Positions 7,766 to 61,875 of a stretch of DNA of 64,000 nt are shown here, piece by piece. Position 1 is the first letter of the stretch, and the number at the start of each line of letters is the position of its first letter. The position numbers and the translations under genes are program-made. The notes beneath the pieces were generated by a model. That model ran no database searches, was not told where the DNA came from, and saw only the letters and a list, made by a program, of their open reading frames with translations. The stretch lies in NCBI GenBank assembly GCA_001786955.1, contig MFUM01000009.1, forward strand, positions 552-64,551, in the 5' to 3' direction. This stretch comes from Candidatus Nomurabacteria bacterium RIFCSPHIGHO2_12_FULL_42_19 (GTDB taxonomy: Bacteria; Patescibacteriota; Minisyncoccia; Phycocordibacterales; UBA9973).

Positions 7766-7787
7766 TTTTTTAAAATAAACTTTTGCA

Positions 7788-7851
7788 GGGGTTTTGAGGC
7801 TGTCGAGCCGAAAACTTCAGGATTTTTTAAGCTTTAAAAAATCCGTACCGG
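7788..7851 (+). repeat. Copy 1 of a roughly 64-nt conserved structured element, with A/T-rich inverted-repeat flanks at 7768-7784 and 7852-7871
   Basis: GGGGTTTTGAG-ggctgtcgagcc-GAAAACTTCAGGATTTTTTAAgctttAAAAAATCCGTACCGG. It is near-identical to 59556-59619 except for compensatory changes in the inner hairpin (ggct/agcc versus gcgc/gcgc). Confidence 0.7.
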
Positions 7852-7897
7852 AAAAAGTTAATTTTTAAAAATTTAACAAGTAGTGTAGAATATAAAG

Positions 7898-21517: not shown

Positions 21518-21522
21518 TTTTG

Positions 21523-21594
21523 TGCCTGGGGGCAGAATCGCACTGCCGACCTATCCCTCTTCAGGGGAGAGCTCTACTACTGAGCTACCCAGGC
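21523..21594 (-). tRNA. tRNA-Phe (anticodon GAA)
   Basis: Reverse complement is GCCTGGG-TA-GCTC-AGTAGTA-GAGC-T-CTCCC-CTGAAGA-GGGAT-AGGTC-GGCAG-TGCGATT-CTGCC-CCCAGGC-A. Confidence 0.85.
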
Positions 21595-21615: not shown

Positions 21616-21697
21616 ATGCCTGGGTATTTATATACCGAATGAGTCCCGACGCATTTAGGTCGGGAAGCCGACTGAAACGTCGGCTCTACCCAGGCAT
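21616..21697 (+). repeat. Family-1 double-hairpin element copy A, enclosed by an 11-bp inverted repeat that copies the tRNA-Phe 5' end
   Basis: atgcctgggta (21616-21626) and tacccaggcat (21687-21697) flank hairpin 1 tcccgac-gcatttag-gtcggga (21644-21665) and hairpin 2 agccgac-tgaaac-gtcggct (21666-21685). Confidence 0.75.
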
Positions 21698-21957
21698 CAC
21701 GATTTTATCTTGATAAAACCGTCTTTAATTATACTAGCAATATAATCATGTCTTTTCAACTTTTTTAGCTTAAATTCAATACTTCTAGCTTCTTTTAAGG
21801 TTTGATATTTTTGAGAAAAAATTAGTTTTAGTTTCCCTAATCTTTTAGTTGAAGGGGTATAGCCACCTAAATGGTGTTGCATTCTATCGTCCAAATCAAC
21901 AGTGCTACCTATGTAATACTTTCCATCTTCATTTTGTAATATATAAACAAATGCCAT
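21697..21957 (-). CDS. GIY-YIG nuclease, YhbQ/UPF0213-like small protein
   Basis: FVYILQNEDGKYYIGSTVDLDDRMQHH gives the GIY...YIG motif plus the Arg/His catalytic region. 86 aa. Confidence 0.75.
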   Translation of the reverse strand: MAFVYILQNEDGKYYIGSTVDLDDRMQHHLGGYTPSTKRLGKLKLIFSQKYQTLKEARSIEFKLKKLKRHDYIASIIKDGFIKIKS

Positions 21958-21966
21958 AAAACTGAG

Positions 21967-22020
21967 TCCCGACGCCCTTTGGGGTCGGGAGGCCGACCTA
22001 GCGTCGGCCCTACCCAGGCA
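21967..22020 (+). repeat. Family-1 double-hairpin element copy B, ending in a third copy of the tRNA-Phe 5'-end 11-mer
   Basis: tcccgac-gccctttgggg-tcggga, then ggccgac-ctagc-gtcggcc, then ctacccaggca. Outer pairs covary relative to copy A (a-t changed to g-c). Confidence 0.75.
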
Positions 22021-31464: not shown

Positions 31465-33459
31465 TTATTCCCCGGCGCGCATCATCTTCAGAAACACATC
31501 TTGGGGAATGTTTACCCTGCCTCTTTCTTTCATTTTTTTCTTTCCCTTTTTCTGTTTTTCGCGAAGTTTCATTTTGCGGGTAATATCTCCCCCATACATG
31601 TGCTGGGTTACATCTTTTTTCATGCCGGAAAGAGTGCGGGAAGAAATGATGCGCCCGAGCGCCTTGCCTTGAATTTTTAAAGTAAACATCTGCCGGGGCA
31701 GCAGGCTTTCCAGTTTTTCAACCGCTTTTTCGGCTTCTTCGGCCGCTCTTTTTTTAGAAACAACCCGGGAAAAAGCCGGCACGATTTCATCGGCGACTAT
31801 CAGGTCAAGTCTGGTAACATTCGCTTCGCGCATTTCCCCTATTTCATAAGATATGGAGCCATAGCCCGATGAAACGCTTTTTAATTCATCAAAGAAATTT
31901 CTCATAAGTTCACGGAGGGGCATTTCTACAGATATAGTTGAACGGTTATCCCCGAAATTTTCCGTGTTGCCAACCTCCCCTTCGTGGTCAAAAAGCAATT
32001 GCATGATATTGCCGATATATTTTACCGGAGTGATGATTTTCAATCGGACCCAAGGTTCGAATACGGCCTCTATATTGCCGTCATCAGGAAAAAAATACGG
32101 AGAATAAACCCGCACACTTTTTCTCTGGTCGTTTTTCAAACGCGCTTCTGGCGCAACCAGAGAATTAGTGTGCGGGTAAATCTTTTCTTGATTGCTATTT
32201 TTCATTAAAACCTCGTAGGTGATGGATGGAGTAGTGATTACTAAATCCAAATTAAACTCGCGTTTCAGCCTTTCCGTGATGATTTCAAGATGGAGCATTC
32301 CTAAAAATCCGCATCTGAATCCCCGGCCCAGTGAACCGGAAGATTCTTCTTCGTATGAAAAAGCCGAATCGGAAAGCTTTAGTTTCCCCAATGAAAGCTT
32401 TAATTCCGCAAAATCATCCGCATCTTCCGGAAAAACCGAAGCCCAGACAACCGGCAAGGGTTGCATATAGCCCTCAAAAGCCGGCAATGGATTTTTAAAC
32501 ATAGTAATAGTATCTCCCACCGAAGCTATACCCGGTTTCTTTATGCCGGTAACGATATAGCCCGTTTCTCCCGAAGAAAGAAAATCGGCGGGTGTTTCTT
32601 CGGGGGAAAAAGTTCCGACTTCTAGAGCGGTGAATTTTTCGCCCGAAACTGCAAAAAGCAAAGATTCGCCTTTTGTCATCTTGCCGTCAAATACCCGCAC
32701 AAAAACTATTACTCCCCGATGATTTGAATATTTAAAATCAAAAACCAATGCACGGAGCACCCCCTCCGCCTTTGGCACCTCCCCCTTGGCAAGGAGGAGG
32801 GTGGAAGTCGGCTCCGGAACACGTTTTACGACTTCCTGCAGAAGATTCTCCACTCCTTCTCCGGTACGCCCGGAGACCAGCAAAATTTCATTTGGATCGC
32901 AGTTTAAAAGCTTTACAACTTCTTCTTTAACTTCATTTATTCTGGCTAAAGGGGAATCAATTTTAGAGAGCACTGGAATGATTTTAAGGCCATCCAAGCG
33001 CGCCATAGCAAGCGTGGTAAGCGTCTGAGCCTGCACCCCCTGAGTTGAATCTATAAGCAAAATAGAGCCCTCTACGGCCTTTAGGGCGCGGGACACTTCG
33101 TAGGAGAAATCTATATGCCCGGGAGTATCAATTAGATTTAAAATGTAAACCCCATCCTCAGCCTTCCCCGAGGGGGAAGGAATTTGCCCCTCTCCTTTGG
33201 GGAGGGGTTGGGGAGGGGTGTATTTCATGCGGACGGGCTGCATTTTGATGGTAATTCCCCTTTCGCGCTCAAGTTCCATGGAATCCAGAACCTGCTCGCG
33301 CATCTTGCGTGTTTCTATGGTGTGTGTAATTTCAAGCATTCTATCCGCTAAGGTGCTCTTGCCGTGGTCAATATGCGCGATGATAGAAAAATTTCTGATG
33401 TGTTTTATATCCATAAATAAATTTTTTAATCCAAAAATCCGCCGGTTTGGTGGTTCCAT
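31465..33459 (-). CDS. lepA: Elongation factor 4 (LepA), carrying an in-frame 19-aa insertion between G2 and G3
   Basis: IIAHIDHGKST...DTPGH...NKID and the LepA-specific C-terminal domain. TPPQPLPKGEGQIPSPSGK, between RGITIKMQPVRMKY and AEDGVYILNLIDTPGH, is absent from canonical LepA. Confidence 0.9.
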   Translation of the reverse strand: MEPPNRRIFGLKNLFMDIKHIRNFSIIAHIDHGKSTLADRMLEITHTIETRKMREQVLDSMELERERGITIKMQPVRMKYTPPQPLPKGEGQIPSPSGKAEDGVYILNLIDTPGHIDFSYEVSRALKAVEGSILLIDSTQGVQAQTLTTLAMARLDGLKIIPVLSKIDSPLARINEVKEEVVKLLNCDPNEILLVSGRTGEGVENLLQEVVKRVPEPTSTLLLAKGEVPKAEGVLRALVFDFKYSNHRGVIVFVRVFDGKMTKGESLLFAVSGEKFTALEVGTFSPEETPADFLSSGETGYIVTGIKKPGIASVGDTITMFKNPLPAFEGYMQPLPVVWASVFPEDADDFAELKLSLGKLKLSDSAFSYEEESSGSLGRGFRCGFLGMLHLEIITERLKREFNLDLVITTPSITYEVLMKNSNQEKIYPHTNSLVAPEARLKNDQRKSVRVYSPYFFPDDGNIEAVFEPWVRLKIITPVKYIGNIMQLLFDHEGEVGNTENFGDNRSTISVEMPLRELMRNFFDELKSVSSGYGSISYEIGEMREANVTRLDLIVADEIVPAFSRVVSKKRAAEEAEKAVEKLESLLPRQMFTLKIQGKALGRIISSRTLSGMKKDVTQHMYGGDITRKMKLREKQKKGKKKMKERGRVNIPQDVFLKMMRAGE
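33162..33220. repeat. Family-2 GC-rich double-hairpin element copy E, lying inside the lepA CDS in frame
   Basis: ccttcccc-gag-ggggaagg, then aatttg, then cccctctcc-ttt-ggggagggg (one G-U pair), then ttggggagggg. The 57 nt match the 19 extra LepA codons. Confidence 0.7.
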
Positions 33460-35242: not shown

Positions 35243-35561
35243 CCCCCACACCTTTTGTTTTATGGCTTCAGATCATATAATAGTCATTATGTACTATGTA
35301 TATATTTTGAAGAGCTTGAAAGATGAAAAATTATATATTGGTTCAACCAATGATCTGAAGCGAAGACTTTCGGAACACAATAATGGACTTAATCGTTCAA
35401 CGAAAGCGAGGCGGCCTTTCGAACTGAGATATTATGAAGCTTGTGCCAGTAAATATGATGCAAGAAAAAGAGAATATGCGCTAAAAAAAGACGGTAAAGC
35501 CTTAGGCCAATTAAAAAGAAGAATCTCCGAAAGTCTTCAATAAAAACGAAAGGTGTGGGGG
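35243..35561. mobile_element. GIY-YIG gene cassette bounded by a 19-bp inverted repeat (1 mismatch)
   Basis: cccccacaccttttgtttt (35243-35261) and aaaacgaaaggtgtggggg (35543-35561) flank the 35262-35543 ORF exactly. The left arm ends at the ATG. The right arm begins at the stop and ends 1 nt before the murJ stop. Confidence 0.55.
35262..35543 (+). CDS. GIY-YIG nuclease, YhbQ/UPF0213-like small protein (paralog of 21697-21957)
   Basis: YYVYILKSLKDEKLYIGSTNDLKRRLSEH. 93 aa. Confidence 0.75.
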   Translation: MASDHIIVIMYYVYILKSLKDEKLYIGSTNDLKRRLSEHNNGLNRSTKARRPFELRYYEACASKYDARKREYALKKDGKALGQLKRRISESLQ

Positions 35562-53872: not shown

Positions 53873-53913
53873 CCCCGACGCCTTTGGGTCGGGGTCCCGA
53901 CTTTTCGTCGGGA
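53873..53913. repeat. Family-1 double-hairpin element copy C (intergenic)
   Basis: ccccgac-gcctttgg-gtcgggg followed by tcccgac-ttttc-gtcggga. Confidence 0.75.
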
Positions 53914-59156: not shown

Positions 59157-59220
59157 CCTCCCCCAAAGGGAGAGGTCTTGAATTCTTTCCCTCTCCTTTG
59201 AGGAGGGTCAGGGAGGGGTT
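59157..59220. repeat. Family-2 GC-rich double-hairpin element copy F, in the csoR-copA intergenic region
   Basis: cctcccc-caaa-gggagagg, then a spacer, then ccctctcc-ttt-gaggaggg, then tca-gggagggg. The architecture is the same as the lepA copy. Confidence 0.7.
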
Positions 59221-59483
59221 TATTTTCTCTTTAGCTTGTAAACTTTCAATATTTCTTTTGTTGCTTCTCCGGTCCGGCCTTTTTGGATTTGATTGACCAG
59301 GCAAGTCCCCAAATGGCTTGCCATAAGTTCATCTTCAATATTAGAAAGCCCCTGCTTCACAGCTGAAGTCTGGGTAATAATATCAATGCAATATACTCCT
59401 TCATTTATCATTTTCTGCAGGCCGCGAACCTGACCTTCAATAATCTTAAGCCGGCGGACCAGTTTTGATTTATTATCATGCAT
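59220..59483 (-). CDS. csoR: CsoR/RcnR-family metal-sensing repressor (copper-sensitive operon repressor)
   Basis: 87 aa with the DUF156 pattern and the Cys/His ligands YCIDII...SHLGTC. Confidence 0.8.
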
Positions 59484-59513: not shown

Positions 59514-59555
59514 GTCAAGACAGATGCTTGTTGAAAACTAAAAAAAGGTTTTTAA

Positions 59556-59619
59556 GGGGTTTTGAGCGCGGCGGCGCGAAAACTTCAGGATTTTTTAAAC
59601 TTCAAAAAATCCGTACCGG
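59556..59619 (+). repeat. Copy 2 of the roughly 64-nt conserved structured element, inside a 15-17-bp inverted-repeat shell (59530-59546 / 59629-59645)
   Basis: GGGGTTTTGAG-cgcggcggcgc-GAAAACTTCAGGATTTTTTAAacttcAAAAAATCCGTACCGG. Outer inverted repeat is gttgaaaactaaaaa / tttttagttttcaac. Confidence 0.7.
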
Positions 59620-59648
59620 CAAAAATCTTGTTTTTAGTTTTCAACTTA

Positions 59649-60875
59649 TTAGATTACCCCCATTTCTCTGCCCACCTCGGACAAAATTTTAAGCGCCTGG
59701 TCAATCTGTTCGCGGGTATGCGCAGCGGAAATTTGGAAACGCAATCGCGCGGTGCCTTCCGGCACGACCGGAAACCACAACCCCACTACAAAAAGTCCAT
59801 TCGCCAAAAGTTTTTTGCTCATTTCCTGCGTCTTGGCGGCATCCCCCAGCATTACCGGCACGATTGGATGAATGCCGTCCAATACTTCAAAACCCAATTT
59901 TTTCGCCCCATTTCTGAAATATTCCGAGTTTTCTTTTACCTTAATTAAAAGCTCCGGCTTTTCTTTTAATAAATCCAAAGCCCTGATGGAAGCCATAACC
60001 ACCGATGGCGGCACGGAATTCGAAAAAAGATAAGTGCGGGATTTCTGGCGGAGCAATTCTATGATTTCTTTTTTGCCGGCAATGTATCCGCCGACCGCCC
60101 CGCCCAGCGCCTTGCCAAAAGTTCCGGAAAGAACGTCAATCTTCCCGTGCAGGCCGAAATGCTCCGGCGTGCCGGCGCCGCTCTTGCCCAAAACTCCGAT
60201 GGCGTGCGCATCATCCACGAATAAAAGCGCTTCGTATTTTTCCGCCAGTTCTTTCAGTTTCGGCAATTGTGCCAGATATCCTTCCATGGAAAAAACTCCG
60301 TCCGACACGATAATTTTAAAACGATATCCTTTGCCTTGGTCTTCCACAAGCATTTTCTCTAGGGCGACCAAGTCTCCGTGCGAATAAATTCTTTTAACCA
60401 TATTTTCCTTTTTACAAAGTTTAAAAGCGTCAATGATGCTGGCATGGTTAAGTTCGTCGCTGTAAATAGCATCCATATGCTCCCCTTCTGCCCCAAAAGC
60501 TTCATTGGTAAGAGTCGCGAAAAAACCCAGATTCGCCATAAAATTGGTGGAATATAAGATGCTGTCATTCACTTCCAGAAATTCGGCTAATTTTTTTTCC
60601 AAAGTTTTATGGATAGTTTCCGTGCCGGAAATAAAGCGCACCGATGACAAGCCGAAGCCATATTTATCTATCGCGTCTTTGCCGGCTTTTGTAATTTCCG
60701 GATGATTCGCCAATCCCAGATAATTATTTGCGGCGAACATCAAGACCTTCTTGCCGGCAATTTCCACTTCCGCTCCCTGAGTTCCCTCCAGTTCTCTTTC
60801 CATCTTGAATTTCCCGGCTTTTTTCAACGTCTCCAGTTCTTTTTCTATATCTTCCGCAAGTTTCTTAGAATACAT
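59649..60875 (-). CDS. kbl: 2-amino-3-ketobutyrate CoA ligase (glycine C-acetyltransferase)
   Basis: PLP-dependent aminotransferase class II. The pattern GxxFSMEG resembles the PLP-lysine region, and the N-terminus is Kbl/BioF-like. Confidence 0.8.
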   Translation of the reverse strand: MYSKKLAEDIEKELETLKKAGKFKMERELEGTQGAEVEIAGKKVLMFAANNYLGLANHPEITKAGKDAIDKYGFGLSSVRFISGTETIHKTLEKKLAEFLEVNDSILYSTNFMANLGFFATLTNEAFGAEGEHMDAIYSDELNHASIIDAFKLCKKENMVKRIYSHGDLVALEKMLVEDQGKGYRFKIIVSDGVFSMEGYLAQLPKLKELAEKYEALLFVDDAHAIGVLGKSGAGTPEHFGLHGKIDVLSGTFGKALGGAVGGYIAGKKEIIELLRQKSRTYLFSNSVPPSVVMASIRALDLLKEKPELLIKVKENSEYFRNGAKKLGFEVLDGIHPIVPVMLGDAAKTQEMSKKLLANGLFVVGLWFPVVPEGTARLRFQISAAHTREQIDQALKILSEVGREMGVI

Positions 60876-60888
60876 ATTCTTGATTATA

Positions 60889-61875
60889 TCATTTTAATTT
60901 ATCTTTTAAATTTTTCAGCATTTCCGCAGTCATTTTTTCCAGATTAAATTCGGGCTTCCAGCCCCAGTCTGCGCGGGCCGCGCTGTCATCAATGCTTTTC
61001 GGCCAGGAATCGGCAATCTTTTGGCGGAGATCCGGCATATAGTTTATTTCAAAAGAAGGAATATGTTTTTTGATTTCTTCGGCAATTTCCCGCGGCGAGA
61101 AACTCATGGCGGACAAATTATACGCCATGCGGGATTGCACTTTCTCAACCGGAACCTCCATTATTTCTATCGTGGCGCGGATTGCATCATCCATATACAT
61201 CATCGGGAGATAAGTATTCTCTGAAAGAAAACATGTATATTTTCCCTGTTTCAATGCTTCGTAATATATTTCCACGGCATAGTCGGTAGTGCCCCCTCCC
61301 GGTTCGCTCTTCCAGCTGATAAGCCCCGGATAACGCACGCTACGGACATCAAGACCAAAGCGCCTATTGTAATATTGGCACAATAATTCTCCGGTATATT
61401 TCGTAATTCCATACATAGTAGTCGGTTCAATAATTGTTTTTTGCGGAGTATTTTCTCTGGGAGCTGTCACGCCAAAGACGGCGATAGAACTCGGCCAGAA
61501 TAATTTAATTTTTTCATCCACGCTCAAGTCAAGAATTTGCCGCAGGCTTCCCATATTAAGTTCCCAGGCAAGTTTTGGATTTTTCTCGCCGGTTGCCGAC
61601 AGCAACGCCGCTAGCAAATAGATTGTTGTTATTTTTTTCCCGACGCTTTCGGTCGGGACCCCGACCCCAGAGGGCGTCGGGGCTTTCACTAGAGCACGAA
61701 CAGCCTCCGCATCCATTGCATCTAATATCGCAAAAGGGCCGGTACCTAAGAGTAGCGGATGTTCTTCTTTAATGTCGGTGGCCAAAACATTCTCATTGCC
61801 GTATTTTTTCCGCAACGCCAAAGTTAGCTCTACCCCTATTTGCCCGCATGCTCCGATGACTAAAATCTTTTCCAT
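60889..61875 (-). CDS. tdh: L-threonine 3-dehydrogenase (NAD-dependent epimerase/dehydratase-type), carrying an in-frame repeat insertion
   Basis: Rossmann motif ILVIGACGQIG and catalytic YxxxK (YGITKYTGE). It is adjacent to kbl. The 16-aa segment APTPSGVGVPTESVGK between LVK and KITTIYLLAALLSA is absent from homologs. Confidence 0.8.
   Translation of the reverse strand: MEKILVIGACGQIGVELTLALRKKYGNENVLATDIKEEHPLLLGTGPFAILDAMDAEAVRALVKAPTPSGVGVPTESVGKKITTIYLLAALLSATGEKNPKLAWELNMGSLRQILDLSVDEKIKLFWPSSIAVFGVTAPRENTPQKTIIEPTTMYGITKYTGELLCQYYNRRFGLDVRSVRYPGLISWKSEPGGGTTDYAVEIYYEALKQGKYTCFLSENTYLPMMYMDDAIRATIEIMEVPVEKVQSRMAYNLSAMSFSPREIAEEIKKHIPSFEINYMPDLRQKIADSWPKSIDDSAARADWGWKPEFNLEKMTAEMLKNLKDKLK
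61638..61682. repeat. Family-1 double-hairpin element copy D, inside the tdh CDS in frame
   Basis: tcccgac-gctttcg-gtcggga followed by ccccgac-cccagagggc-gtcgggg. The reverse complement translates as PTPSGVGVPTESVG in the tdh frame. Confidence 0.75.

Follow-up and report, generated by a model that had tools for sequence, protein, structure and literature searches.

What is a pair of adjacent hairpins doing inside the reading frame of a metabolic enzyme, and what put it there? We addressed this question in a 64,000-nt stretch of DNA (the window) from Candidatus Nomurabacteria bacterium RIFCSPHIGHO2_12_FULL_42_19. A preliminary description had reported four copies of a double hairpin (DH) in this window, one of them within the gene for L-threonine dehydrogenase (TDH), and had likened their behaviour to that of Rickettsia palindromic elements (RPEs).

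Four double hairpins in a 64-kb window

We found all four copies at the coordinates claimed for them, and no strand was assigned to any of them:

21644..21685, copy A, DH, 42 nt; directly 3' of the stop codon of a GIY-YIG gene
21967..22009, copy B, DH, 43 nt; 9 nt upstream of the GIY-YIG start codon
53873..53913, copy C, solitary DH, 41 nt; in a 69-nt spacer with two minus-strand genes of unknown function on either side
61638..61682, copy D, DH, 45 nt; in frame within the TDH gene

Folded as single-stranded DNA, each copy formed the two adjacent hairpins that had been proposed, each of 7 bp, with energies of -14 to -19 kcal/mol and fold z-scores of -3.7 to -5.3. The pattern CCGAC-N3-14-GTCGG occurred eight times in the window, always within the four adjacent pairs. 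Shuffling the window gave an expectation of 0.18 matches and none of 100 shuffles attained eight, so these hairpins are indeed commoner than chance, and they recur across loci of the Candidate Phyla Radiation (CPR).

Three details of the preliminary description held in part. The hairpins are paired as stated, but the CCCGAC/GTCGGG core given for them was too long: hairpin 2 of copies A and B reads GCCGAC/GTCGGC, and the invariant part is CCGAC/GTCGG. The loop of hairpin 1, given as gc-N-ttt-N-g, fits the four window copies but not the wider DH family. Finally, copies A, B and C had been called intergenic, which is true of copy C, whose flanks (TTAA-DH-TTAG) agree with the flank consensus of the family. 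Copies A and B instead flank the GIY-YIG gene and split copies of a tRNA-Phe sequence.

Copy D is an insertion in the TDH gene

The region around copy D holds two genes:

60889..61875, minus strand, L-threonine 3-dehydrogenase gene, SDR type, 328 aa, host of copy D (PDB, Pfam Epimerase, orthologs)
59649-60875, kbl gene, next after the TDH gene

Copy D was in frame and free of stop codons, as claimed, and is read through as KAPTPSGVGVPTESVGKK in the ORF at 60889-61875(-); the minus-strand translation of the copy itself is APTPSGVGVPTESVG. The gene product matched Pfam Epimerase and the solved structures 5z76 (E 3.5e-139) and 2yy7 (E 8.8e-125), and the alignment leaves a gap of 14 aa where the insert lies. 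Orthologs had been suggested as the means of deciding whether the segment is ancestral. In our alignment, the 14-aa segment was missing from 17 orthologs at 75-85% identity, as it was from all solved TDH structures, and ortholog tdh DNA held no hairpin. Exact excision of the 45 nt leaves GTG AAA G/AA AAA ATA (slash, point of excision), which encodes V-K-E-K-I and matches the VK(K)EKI of the orthologs. The boundaries of the element are thereby fixed, and copy D is a true insertion in TDH rather than an ancestral segment, in agreement with the original claim.

The proposed surface-loop check placed the insert between helix 58-64 and strand 84-87, in a coil modelled with low confidence, and we predict that it sits in a surface loop. 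Within the species-level TDH cluster (90%), the insert was present in 7/7 alleles at 98-100% identity. No strain-level presence/absence polymorphism was seen among these 7 alleles and none of the closest alleles had an empty site; the nearest empty sites occur at ≤85% identity.

A double hairpin family across the CPR

A pattern scan recovered at least 120 loci. About 100 of the listed loci belong to the CPR and represent more than 15 candidate phyla, with listed hosts ranging from Saccharibacteria to Parcubacteria, Kerfeld-, Berkel- and Doudnabacteria. Six listed matches from high-G+C actinomycetes (L004, L008, L046, L050, L115, L118) were excluded as coding sequence or chance. The element measures 39-46 nt and consists of two adjacent 7-bp hairpins with the core CCGAC/GTCGG. 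This core is invariant by construction in the set found by DNA pattern; independent support for it comes from a set of loci selected by protein similarity (see below).

Among 121 distinct copies, stem pairs 6 and 7, which the search pattern does not cover, are of Watson-Crick type in 94-98%, compared to ~50% after shuffling. All of CG, TA, GC and AT occur as outer pairs, G-T pairs account for 0-5 of the 121 copies, and pair 8 showed no pairing among them. These counts bear out the compensatory covariation read from the four window copies. The accompanying statement that structure and not sequence is conserved holds for structure; sequence is conserved as well, since the 5-bp core is invariant across phyla. 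Also constant throughout the family are a G(C) right after CGAC in hairpin 1 and a C right before GTCG in hairpin 2, which makes hairpin 2 an inverted hairpin 1. In many copies the search pattern is found on either strand.

Solitary copies share the flank consensus TAR/YTRA (slash, insertion point), which resembles the tRNA site. Direct repeats at the flanks were about as frequent as in shuffles (n = 4: 2 observed vs 1.2 expected), giving no sign of a target-site duplication, and the outer flanks paired no better than shuffles in a search for a closing third helix. Orientation relative to the host gene was random (9 same, 8 opposite). Copies are sparse: this 64 kb has 4, and the remaining 8-kb loci add about one per 100 kb. 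Some loci hold nested copies and hairpin-riddled pseudo-tRNAs.

Could the window copies be chance palindromes or intrinsic terminators, and the TDH segment an ancestral lineage-specific loop? Three of the copies are intergenic and G+C-rich in an A+T-rich genome, as this reading would have it. It is refuted by the shuffled windows, by the presence of the same element, with covarying stems, at more than 100 CPR loci and by the orthologs and solved structures of TDH, and we give it virtually no weight. For an intrinsic terminator in particular, the 3' flank Y-T-R-A lacks a T run, two hairpins are present, many copies lie in ORFs and their orientation is random.

Other identities were considered and rejected. 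A MITE does not fit with direct repeats at shuffle level and an exact excision that restores the target sequence. No known RNA family matched, either at the gathering threshold of Rfam (window) or at E≤1 (around copies A and B). A search of 2.9 million viral contigs for a phage origin returned one G+C-rich chance match.

In-frame copies in protein genes

The TDH insertion is one case of a general habit of the family. DH copies form an uninterrupted part of ORFs of 120 aa or more in 50/132 cases, and about a quarter to a third of all copies are intragenic. Length was a multiple of three in 28/33 copies within ORFs of at least 200 aa, compared to a distribution of 39/32/22 for residues 0/1/2 outside such ORFs. 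Host proteins include SecA (twice), EF-G, LeuRS, HisRS, UvrB, ClpB, GatB and NusA; in EF-G and UvrB the DH peptides appear as alignment gaps against solved structures. Insertions in conserved proteins occupy non-homologous positions. The RPE-like behaviour originally suggested applies to in-frame ORF insertion but not to size or host, and the resemblance is functional only.

These genic copies also bear on a second reading, in which the DH is a motif under selection in the service of its host (a binding site for a protein conserved in the CPR, a DNA-uptake signal, or an RNA structure that would stabilise transcripts or govern their processing) and the genic copies are exaptations. Its attractions are a core that has been kept in very deep CPR lineages with few copies present, the general dependence of CPR bacteria on DNA uptake, and the fact that some copies belong to the 5' leader of the GIY-YIG mRNA, so that their stable folding might protect the transcript. 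However, uptake signals originate by point substitution and not by insertion, and what we observed are clean 39-46-nt insertions within conserved proteins. Random orientation to transcription and the near-absence of G-U/G-T pairs argue against a function at the RNA level, the missing T run in the 3' flank against terminators, and no Rfam family matched. Nested copies and hairpin-riddled pseudo-tRNAs look like repeated insertion. We regard a host-serving motif as a poor prospect.

A GIY-YIG/tRNA cassette carries the hairpin

Copies A and B lie on either side of a small gene that, like its tRNA link, the preliminary description had overlooked. The features of this region are:

21697..21957, minus strand, GIY-YIG nuclease gene, 86 aa, catalytic domain alone (Pfam PF01541, E 2.7e-14)
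21522..21594, minus strand, intact tRNA-Phe (GAA), its 5' part duplicated around copies A and B (ARAGORN; Rfam tRNA 61.2 bits)
22010..22020, minus strand, tRNA-Phe nt 0-10, first copy (TGCCTGGGTAG), 5' of copy B, identical to the tRNA-Phe 5' end
21686..21696, minus strand, second copy of tRNA-Phe nt 0-10 (TGCCTGGGTAG), 5' of copy A, abutting the GIY-YIG stop codon
21617..21626, plus strand, inverted copy of the tRNA-Phe 5' end (TGCCTGGGTA) between copy A and the intact tRNA (direct sequence reading)

Read on the minus strand, copy B stands in the order TGCCTGGGTAG-DH-CTCAG-tttt-ATG and splits a copy of tRNA-Phe nt 1-15, and copy A stands in the order TGA-TGCCTGGGTAG-DH-CTCAT and splits a second copy of nt 1-14. 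Both of these 14-15-nt copies are broken between G10 and C11. Residues Y5, Y15, G17, R25 and E61 of the GIY-YIG protein are invariant in 7 relatives, the catalytic motifs are intact, and among solved structures the protein is closest to the UPF0213 hypothetical proteins 1zg2 and 1ywl. The link to a GIY-YIG gene and a tRNA is the most informative part of the DH finding.

We then assembled metagenome loci by similarity to the GIY-YIG protein alone, blind to hairpins, with a 3-sequence alignment (a 7-sequence alignment was too diverse). A CCGAC hairpin lay ≤125 nt upstream of the GIY-YIG ORF in 68/71 distinct loci, compared to 3/711 background windows, and its place was fixed at 5-25 nt upstream of the start codon. 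An intact tRNA began between -10 and +40 nt from the end of the ORF in 65/73 loci. The fragment preceding the DH was identical to tRNA nt 1-10 or 1-15 in 36/47 loci, and the fragment following it matches the tRNA type specifically. Protein similarity also followed tRNA type, with the nearest neighbour found at the same type in 30/63 cases vs 8.1 on permutation (maximum 20). The tRNA loci show many variants. At L121 and L146, the upstream fragment matches the tRNA allele of a relative and differs from the resident tRNA, which fits both co-conversion and a fragment borne by the element. L044 has the DH, the fragment and tRNA-Phe with no ORF, and represents an ORF-less unit at the same tRNA. A second GIY-YIG clade, located at tRNA-Ser (L052, L063), has the core CCGCC/GGCGG in the same position, and this looks like a pairing of enzyme and hairpin.

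The cassette proteins are 86-90 aa long, with the Pfam match covering residues 2-70. No separate DNA-binding domain was found in them, and NCBIfam and PHROGs returned sub-threshold N-terminal motif matches only. The N-terminal extensions of many GIY-YIG database entries are translated hairpins. A tRNA intron or split tRNA was rejected: in-silico excision with 25 trim combinations and ARAGORN gave a junction-spanning tRNA in 0/132 cases, and an intact tRNA stands beside the fragment.

What might move the element

The cassette raises the question of whether its nuclease moves the hairpin. Alternatively, the DH could be mobile but moved by another agent, for example a RAYT-like Y1 transposase or the host's own replication and repair machinery at work on hairpins. 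In that case the GIY-YIG cassette would be a separate homing element with, by coincidence, a shared target (the tRNA D-arm, TAG/CTCA) or is stabilised by a DH that disrupts the leftover target copy. Hairpin ends without target-site duplication are typical of IS200/IS605 and REP systems, the inverted hairpin doublet resembles a REPIN, and the 5' flank of many tRNA-linked copies ends in GTAG, a REP hallmark. Most DH copies have no GIY-YIG gene nearby, a Y1_Tnp gene lies between tdh and kbl in a related Nomurabacterium, and the likeness of the TAR/YTRA flanks of solitary copies to the tRNA site makes a shared target preference possible. That Y1_Tnp gene (L201), the sole one seen, is however flanked by a different hairpin, TTGGRAGC-TAA-GCTYCCAA, with no CCGAC hairpin at the locus, and we rejected it as a RAYT partner. 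The association of DH and GIY-YIG gene (68/71 vs 3/711) is far tighter than a shared target predicts, the DH keeps its fixed site before the start codon, and the tRNA-Ser clade has its own core at the same position. We consider another mover possible but unlikely.

We favour, with a probability of roughly 60%, the explanation that the DH is a mobile insertion element that behaves like an RPE and has the GIY-YIG/tRNA cassette as its most likely autonomous partner. It would enter DNA without target-site duplication and without loss of target bases, and would act at the DNA level, defined by both sequence and hairpin structure. Genic copies would persist only if their length is a multiple of three and they are stop-free and located in a surface loop that tolerates them; copy D in TDH would be one surviving insertion of this kind. 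The cassette would consist of a stand-alone GIY-YIG gene directly before a tRNA gene, preceded by the first 15-25 nt of the same tRNA, split by the DH after nt 10 or 15, and the window would hold one example.

The mobilising role of the GIY-YIG protein is inferred, as is any route to the partial tRNA duplication. The nuclease probably belongs to the structure-specific Slx1/UPF0213 branch, lacks a DNA-binding domain and may recognise and cut extruded hairpins or the D-arm of tRNA genes. The resulting breaks would drive copying of the cassette into tRNA genes in a homing-like manner, and elsewhere the insertion of solitary DHs and recombination between DH copies. Since a GIY-YIG gene is next door to only ~6/126 copies in the DNA-pattern set, action in trans must be assumed. 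To our knowledge, GIY-YIG enzymes are nucleases with no transposases among them, and a hairpin-specific mobilising role has not been described for the superfamily. We put forward this specific role tentatively, at somewhat less than even odds. A more elaborate version, in which the DH and its two tRNA-derived arms form scaffold and guide for programmable homing, is a long shot. Here the left arm (nt 1-10/15) and right arm (the next 5-12 nt) would steer the 86-aa nuclease to the matching tRNA gene, and solitary DHs would be off-target or trans products.

Comparison with known systems

RPEs are ~100-150 bp long and restricted to Rickettsia, and we know of no enzyme associated with them. Like RPEs, DHs insert in frame and stop-free into protein genes; in both, protein surfaces accommodate the inserted peptides, and the bacteria that harbour the elements have reduced genomes and depend on hosts of their own. 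A review covers RPEs and MITEs (PMC10969869). The DH differs from RPEs in its 39-46 nt, two separate 7-bp hairpins, fixed 5-bp core and CPR hosts, in spanning a whole superphylum at few copies per genome, and in its tie to a GIY-YIG gene and tRNA genes.

REPs are short imperfect palindromes, often inverted doublets, without target-site duplication. They are extragenic by definition and number hundreds per genome. A dedicated enzyme, a Y1 transposase encoded by a single-copy gene that the repeats flank, probably recognises them in the form of folded single strands. The DH shares the short inverted hairpin doublet and, in tRNA-linked copies, the GTAG preceding the hairpin. In contrast, it is often intragenic (the 50/132 above), low in copy number and linked to a GIY-YIG gene, and the sole Y1_Tnp at the examined loci goes with another hairpin.

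The passages on fungal mitochondrial DHEs in two studies describe G+C-rich two-hairpin units in intergenic regions and rRNA genes that are potentially mobile, with Allomyces and Schizosaccharomyces octosporus as hosts and yeast mitochondrial GC clusters grouped alongside (PMC10085805, PMC2800124). Their anatomy is almost identical to that of the DH, with adjacent G+C-rich hairpins dispersed in an A+T-rich genome. DHEs are mitochondrial and not bacterial, and those passages report neither routine in-frame copies in housekeeping genes nor a nuclease cassette at tRNA genes; with unrelated hosts on the two sides, we treat the likeness as an analogy only.

Phage T4 SegB is encoded by a GIY-YIG gene in a tRNA gene cluster, cuts tRNA-gene DNA and is co-inherited with its flanks (PMC2330249). 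The GIY-YIG gene of the window is likewise lodged beside a tRNA gene. Free-standing endonuclease genes of fungal mitochondria carry a replacement gene end, and the cassette similarly has a duplicated gene end beside the nuclease and one intact copy. As with homing endonucleases, the cassette shows presence and absence at a conserved target (L044) and protein similarity that tracks tRNA type. In homing enzymes the GIY-YIG domain is joined to a DNA-binding domain, whereas the cassette proteins, at 86-90 aa, are the catalytic domain only. We know of no homing system with a conserved double hairpin at the breakpoint or with solitary hairpin copies elsewhere.

CPR rRNA genes contain many insertions at the tips or bases of stem-loops; some encode non-intronic GIY-YIG proteins, and many are <200 bp, ORF-less and uncharacterised (PMC11270868). 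That work on rRNA genes is without the DH hairpin, tRNA genes or in-frame protein insertions. We rejected rRNA insertions as an identity for the DH, with no rRNA signature among the 120 listed loci. In the literature that we searched on palindromic, mobile and in-frame elements in CPR, on GIY-YIG genes with tRNAs and on UPF0213/YhbQ, we found no description of the DH, which is consistent with the novelty claimed for CPR-type genomes.

Implications for CPR genomes

The CPR (Patescibacteria) account for a substantial fraction of bacterial diversity, and little is known of the dynamics of their genomes. An element of 40 nt whose core is the same radiation-wide offers a new way to approach gene flow and genome plasticity in these bacteria. 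The DH writes peptides of 13-15 residues into SecA, EF-G, aminoacyl-tRNA synthetases, UvrB and metabolic enzymes, and repeatedly gives rise to apparent 'CPR-specific insertions' when proteins are aligned and to gene calls that extend too far. That the hairpin is almost obligately paired with a minimal GIY-YIG protein at tRNA 5' ends suggests a selfish element of unusual design. Saccharibacteria are now genetically tractable (PMC10633639), which makes the DH question directly testable. If the nuclease recognises hairpins or tRNA-gene structure, this would constitute a new mechanism of GIY-YIG mobility and a compact structure-specific nuclease.

A conserved double hairpin in the window and across CPR genomes

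We observed four copies of a double hairpin (DH), a 39-46-nt element of two adjacent hairpins, at exactly the positions reported in the preliminary description. By its protein matches, the window comes from a Candidatus Nomurabacteria genome belonging to the Rifle aquifer series.

Main features of the window
21522-21594, minus strand: tRNA-Phe
21644-21685: DH copy A
21697-21957, minus strand: GIY-YIG gene
21967-22009: DH copy B
53873-53913: DH copy C
60889-61875, minus strand: TDH gene (SDR-type L-threonine 3-dehydrogenase; solved matches 5z76, 2yy7)
61638-61682: DH copy D, inside tdh

The pattern CCGAC-N3-14-GTCGG matched eight times in the 64-kb window, each time within one of the four adjacent pairs, against an expectation of 0.18; none of 100 dinucleotide shuffles reached eight, and the motif is thus well beyond chance here. 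Folded as ssDNA, each copy formed two abutting 7-bp hairpins (-14 to -19 kcal/mol, z -3.7 to -5.3). The proposed core CCCGAC/GTCGGG proved too long: only CCGAC/GTCGG is invariant, and hairpin 2 of copies A and B reads GCCGAC/GTCGGC. Since a G(C) directly follows CGAC in hairpin 1 and a C directly precedes GTCG in hairpin 2, the DH amounts to a single asymmetric hairpin present twice, in inverted orientation.

A scan for the double-hairpin pattern in one genome per species returned at least 120 loci, ~100 of them in CPR/Patescibacteria of many candidate phyla. Among the matches listed were Saccharibacteria, Nomura-, Taylor-, Kaiser-, Adler-, Yanofsky-, Wolfe-, Zambryski-, Lipton-, Nealson-, Jorgensen-, Kerfeld-, Berkel- and Doudnabacteria and Minisyncoccia. 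A few others came from MAGs labelled Chitinophagaceae, Bdellovibrionales/Bacteriovoracaceae, Gammaproteobacteria or Methylomirabilis; MAG contig labels can be in error, and some of these may be mis-binned. Six high-G+C actinomycete matches were left out as coding matches. Among 2.9 million viral contigs there was a single match, put down to chance, and the DH corresponds to no family in Rfam.

In this set the core is fixed by construction, while two outer pairs per stem lie outside the search pattern. Across 121 distinct copies among the matches listed, these outer pairs were Watson-Crick in 94-98% of cases, compared to 45-50% in shuffles, and occurred as CG, TA, GC and AT, which upholds the compensatory covariation first noticed in the window. 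Pairing ends before position eight, which sets stem length at exactly 7 bp; G-T pairs occurred in 0-5 of the 121. Among the matches listed, DNA-pattern copies had neither pairing between their outer flanks nor a target-site duplication at them. The flanks do show a preference, T-Y-A-R before the element and Y-T-R-A after it.

Candidatus Taylorbacteria RIFCSPLOWO2_12_FULL_43_20 contains at least seven near-identical copies (loci L027, L061, L077, L083, L109 twice, L114) with longer conserved flanks in common, CCCATTCGTATYCATCC before and AGTCGTAYATTSGTAT after. To judge from these flanks, the DH in this lineage is the core of a longer, amplified repeat. The window also holds a second G+C-rich palindromic family in two copies (33188-33226 and 59189-59227; 74% identity), CCCTCTCC-TTTG-GGGAGGGG-TTGGGGAGGGG..., which has no sequence relation to the CCGAC element.

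Insertion into L-threonine dehydrogenase and other genes

The window TDH is best matched among solved structures by 5z76 (E 3.5e-139) and 2yy7 (E 8.8e-125), and its gene adjoins kbl. The suggestion that copy D is an insertion held: 14 residues exactly at copy D are missing in 17 TDH orthologs (75-85% identity) and in all solved TDHs, and no CCGAC hairpin was found in the DNA of three orthologs. When exactly the 45 nt that make up the two 7-bp hairpins are excised, GTG AAA G[45 nt]AA AAA ATA reads V-K-E-K-I, as in the orthologs but for one Lys within an A run. What was inserted is therefore just the hairpin pair, and the target was neither duplicated nor shortened. Together, excision and covariation show, as far as sequence goes, a discrete insertion with exact boundaries whose stems are maintained.

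The insert lies in the Rossmann fold between helix 58-64 and strand 84-87, which in SDR folds generally is the side facing away from the cofactor cleft. In an AlphaFold model of modest confidence (shallow alignment, mean pLDDT 68.6), residues 68-78 are coil with pLDDT <50. An identical insert is present in all seven TDH alleles of the 90% cluster (98-100% identity), so it is fixed in the species-level population and not a recent event. The Nomurabacteria-type ortholog P0067 (locus L203, 1501-2490) has a different in-frame palindrome near residue 280, CCCGCCCGA-aaga-TCGGAC-tcg-TCCGG-TCGGGCGGG, encoding PPERSDSSGRAGV; such insertions are thus recurrent in tdh. In a related Nomurabacterium (L201, 2820-3470), a Y1_Tnp gene (IS200/IS605 or RAYT-like) separates tdh from kbl and has a hairpin distinct from the DH, TTGGRAGC-TAA-GCTYCCAA, on either side. 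A 107-nt direct repeat (7771-7877 and 59539-59645; 77% identity, 52 kb apart) has its second copy just downstream of kbl.

Among the matches listed, 50 of 132 copies are read through by ORFs of at least 120 aa. Within ORFs of at least 200 aa, DH length is a multiple of 3 in 28/33 copies, versus length residues 0/1/2 of 39/32/22 for copies elsewhere. These counts show that coding contexts tolerate the element only in frame. Recognisable host genes encode SecA (two different sites), EF-G, LeuRS, HisRS, UvrB, ClpB, GatB, NusA, Pth, class II aldolase, thioredoxin reductase, leucyl aminopeptidase, DNA polymerase III delta' subunit and a PilB-type ATPase; in EF-G and UvrB the DH-encoded peptide falls on a gap in the alignment to solved structures. 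All three frames are used, the commonest giving PTPxGVGxPTxSVG. The DH is oriented at random with respect to its host gene (9 vs 8); this and the virtual lack of G-T pairs speak for an element acting as DNA, not RNA.

Association with a GIY-YIG gene at tRNA 5' ends

On the minus strand, the window cassette reads TGCCTGGGTAG, copy B, CTCAG, tttt, the GIY-YIG ORF (86 aa) and TGA; then TGCCTGGGTAG, copy A, CTCAT, 12 nt, an inverted TACCCAGGCA, 22 nt and tRNA-Phe (GCCTGGGTAGCTCAG...). In this layout copies A and B each sit between G10 and C11 of a tRNA-Phe nt 1-15 duplicate, which they split. The description of all copies other than D as intergenic thus needs amending for A and B, which interrupt tRNA 5' duplicates on either side of the ORF.

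Cassette layouts recurred among the DNA-pattern loci with an ORF (L069, L085, L088, L117) and without one (L044, L048, L092, L073, L104, L028). As an independent test, we used 80 metagenome loci picked by GIY-YIG protein similarity alone. A CCGAC hairpin lay at most 125 nt upstream of the ORF at 68/71 distinct loci, compared to 3/711 background windows, and the start of an intact tRNA fell at -10 to +40 nt relative to the ORF end at 65/73; the stop codon TAG is often tRNA nt 8-10. The tRNAs were Phe, Lys, Met, Thr, Asn, Val, Arg and Ile. At 34 loci the DH follows nt 10 of a tRNA fragment, and at 12 loci nt 15; the fragment in front of the DH is identical to the resident tRNA in 36/47 loci, and the 5-12 nt behind it are characteristic of the tRNA type. 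Nearest protein neighbours had the tRNA type in common in 30/63 cases, versus 8.1 by permutation (maximum 20). By these counts the DH is tied almost obligatorily to one GIY-YIG clade (111 clusters at 50% identity, E<=1e-10) at the tRNA gene 5' end.

Many database entries of this clade (P0121-P0265) carry 20-60 surplus N-terminal residues, which are translated upstream hairpins (e.g. APTPYGVGIPTKTSG) or a translated tRNA gene (e.g. GSSPVSST, VGSNPTPAT); read this way, the extension is a systematic gene-calling artefact. The window has a second GIY-YIG gene (35289-35543, plus strand, 84 aa) of a different, YhbQ/UPF0213-like clade, with no CCGAC hairpin or tRNA nearby. It is enclosed by a 13-bp inverted repeat, CCCCCACACCTTT ... 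AAAGGTGTGGGGG (arms 35243-35255 and 35549-35561), as if inserted in a hairpin loop.

Further hairpin units lie downstream of the intact tRNA at 14/60 loci, typically as 5-25 nt, (x)TAG, DH, CTCA and the remainder (nt 11-76) of a second tRNA copy. At L136 and L158, downstream pseudo-tRNA copies have extra hairpins hitting the D arm, anticodon loop and T loop; at L135 and L128, a unit of one CCGAC hairpin and a tRNA 3' fragment is repeated in tandem downstream. L174 has one unit upstream and one downstream, as might be expected if a circle had integrated into a DH-split tRNA through recombination between two DHs. Hairpins are nested within loops of other hairpins at ~16 of 80 loci. Outside CPR, a Chitinophagaceae MAG (L029, 6380-6700) has a mirror image without an ORF: intact tRNA-Glu and terminator, GGG, DH, TTCGAATCC / TTCGAATCCCGTACGGGCTACA, the tRNA 3' end and a second terminator copy; the DH here occupies the T loop in the second copy of the tRNA-Glu 3' part. 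The intact tRNA is kept in every case. A second GIY-YIG clade lies directly upstream of tRNA-Ser (L052, ~1915-2300; L063, ~560-1010), with a tRNA-Ser 5' fragment (GGAGACGTGTCAGA) in front of it that is split after nt 14 by CCGCC/GGCGG hairpins. This shared layout with a different hairpin family hints at enzyme-specific hairpins.

Relation to known elements and possible mechanism

The DH resembles Rickettsia palindromic elements (RPE) in behaviour, mitochondrial double-hairpin elements in anatomy, REPINs and IS200/IS605 ends in doublet form and absence of target duplication, and T4 SegB in gene neighbourhood, but it misses defining features of each. The RPE parallel drawn in the preliminary description accordingly stands for in-frame insertion and fails for some defining RPE features. 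We found no description of the DH in the literature searched, whose coverage is incomplete. We place the DH among mobile palindromic insertion elements, and we know of no described counterpart to its partner cassette.

We favour a mobile DH insertion driven by the GIY-YIG protein, with a probability of roughly 0.6. That the DH is a mobile insertion is very probable, while the nuclease as its driver is about an even bet. The stem-loop junctions contain CGACG and CGTCG, which would fit CNNNG, the motif cleaved by I-TevI. The nearest solved relatives of the nuclease are UPF0213 hypothetical proteins; it appears to consist of the catalytic domain only and probably belongs to the bacterial GIY-YIG branch related to structure-specific Slx1 (Dunin-Horkawicz et al., PMC1564403). 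The protein may cut the DH hairpins or the D-arm of the tRNA gene, and repair of the break would then spread the cassette and solitary hairpins and reshuffle DNA between DH copies.
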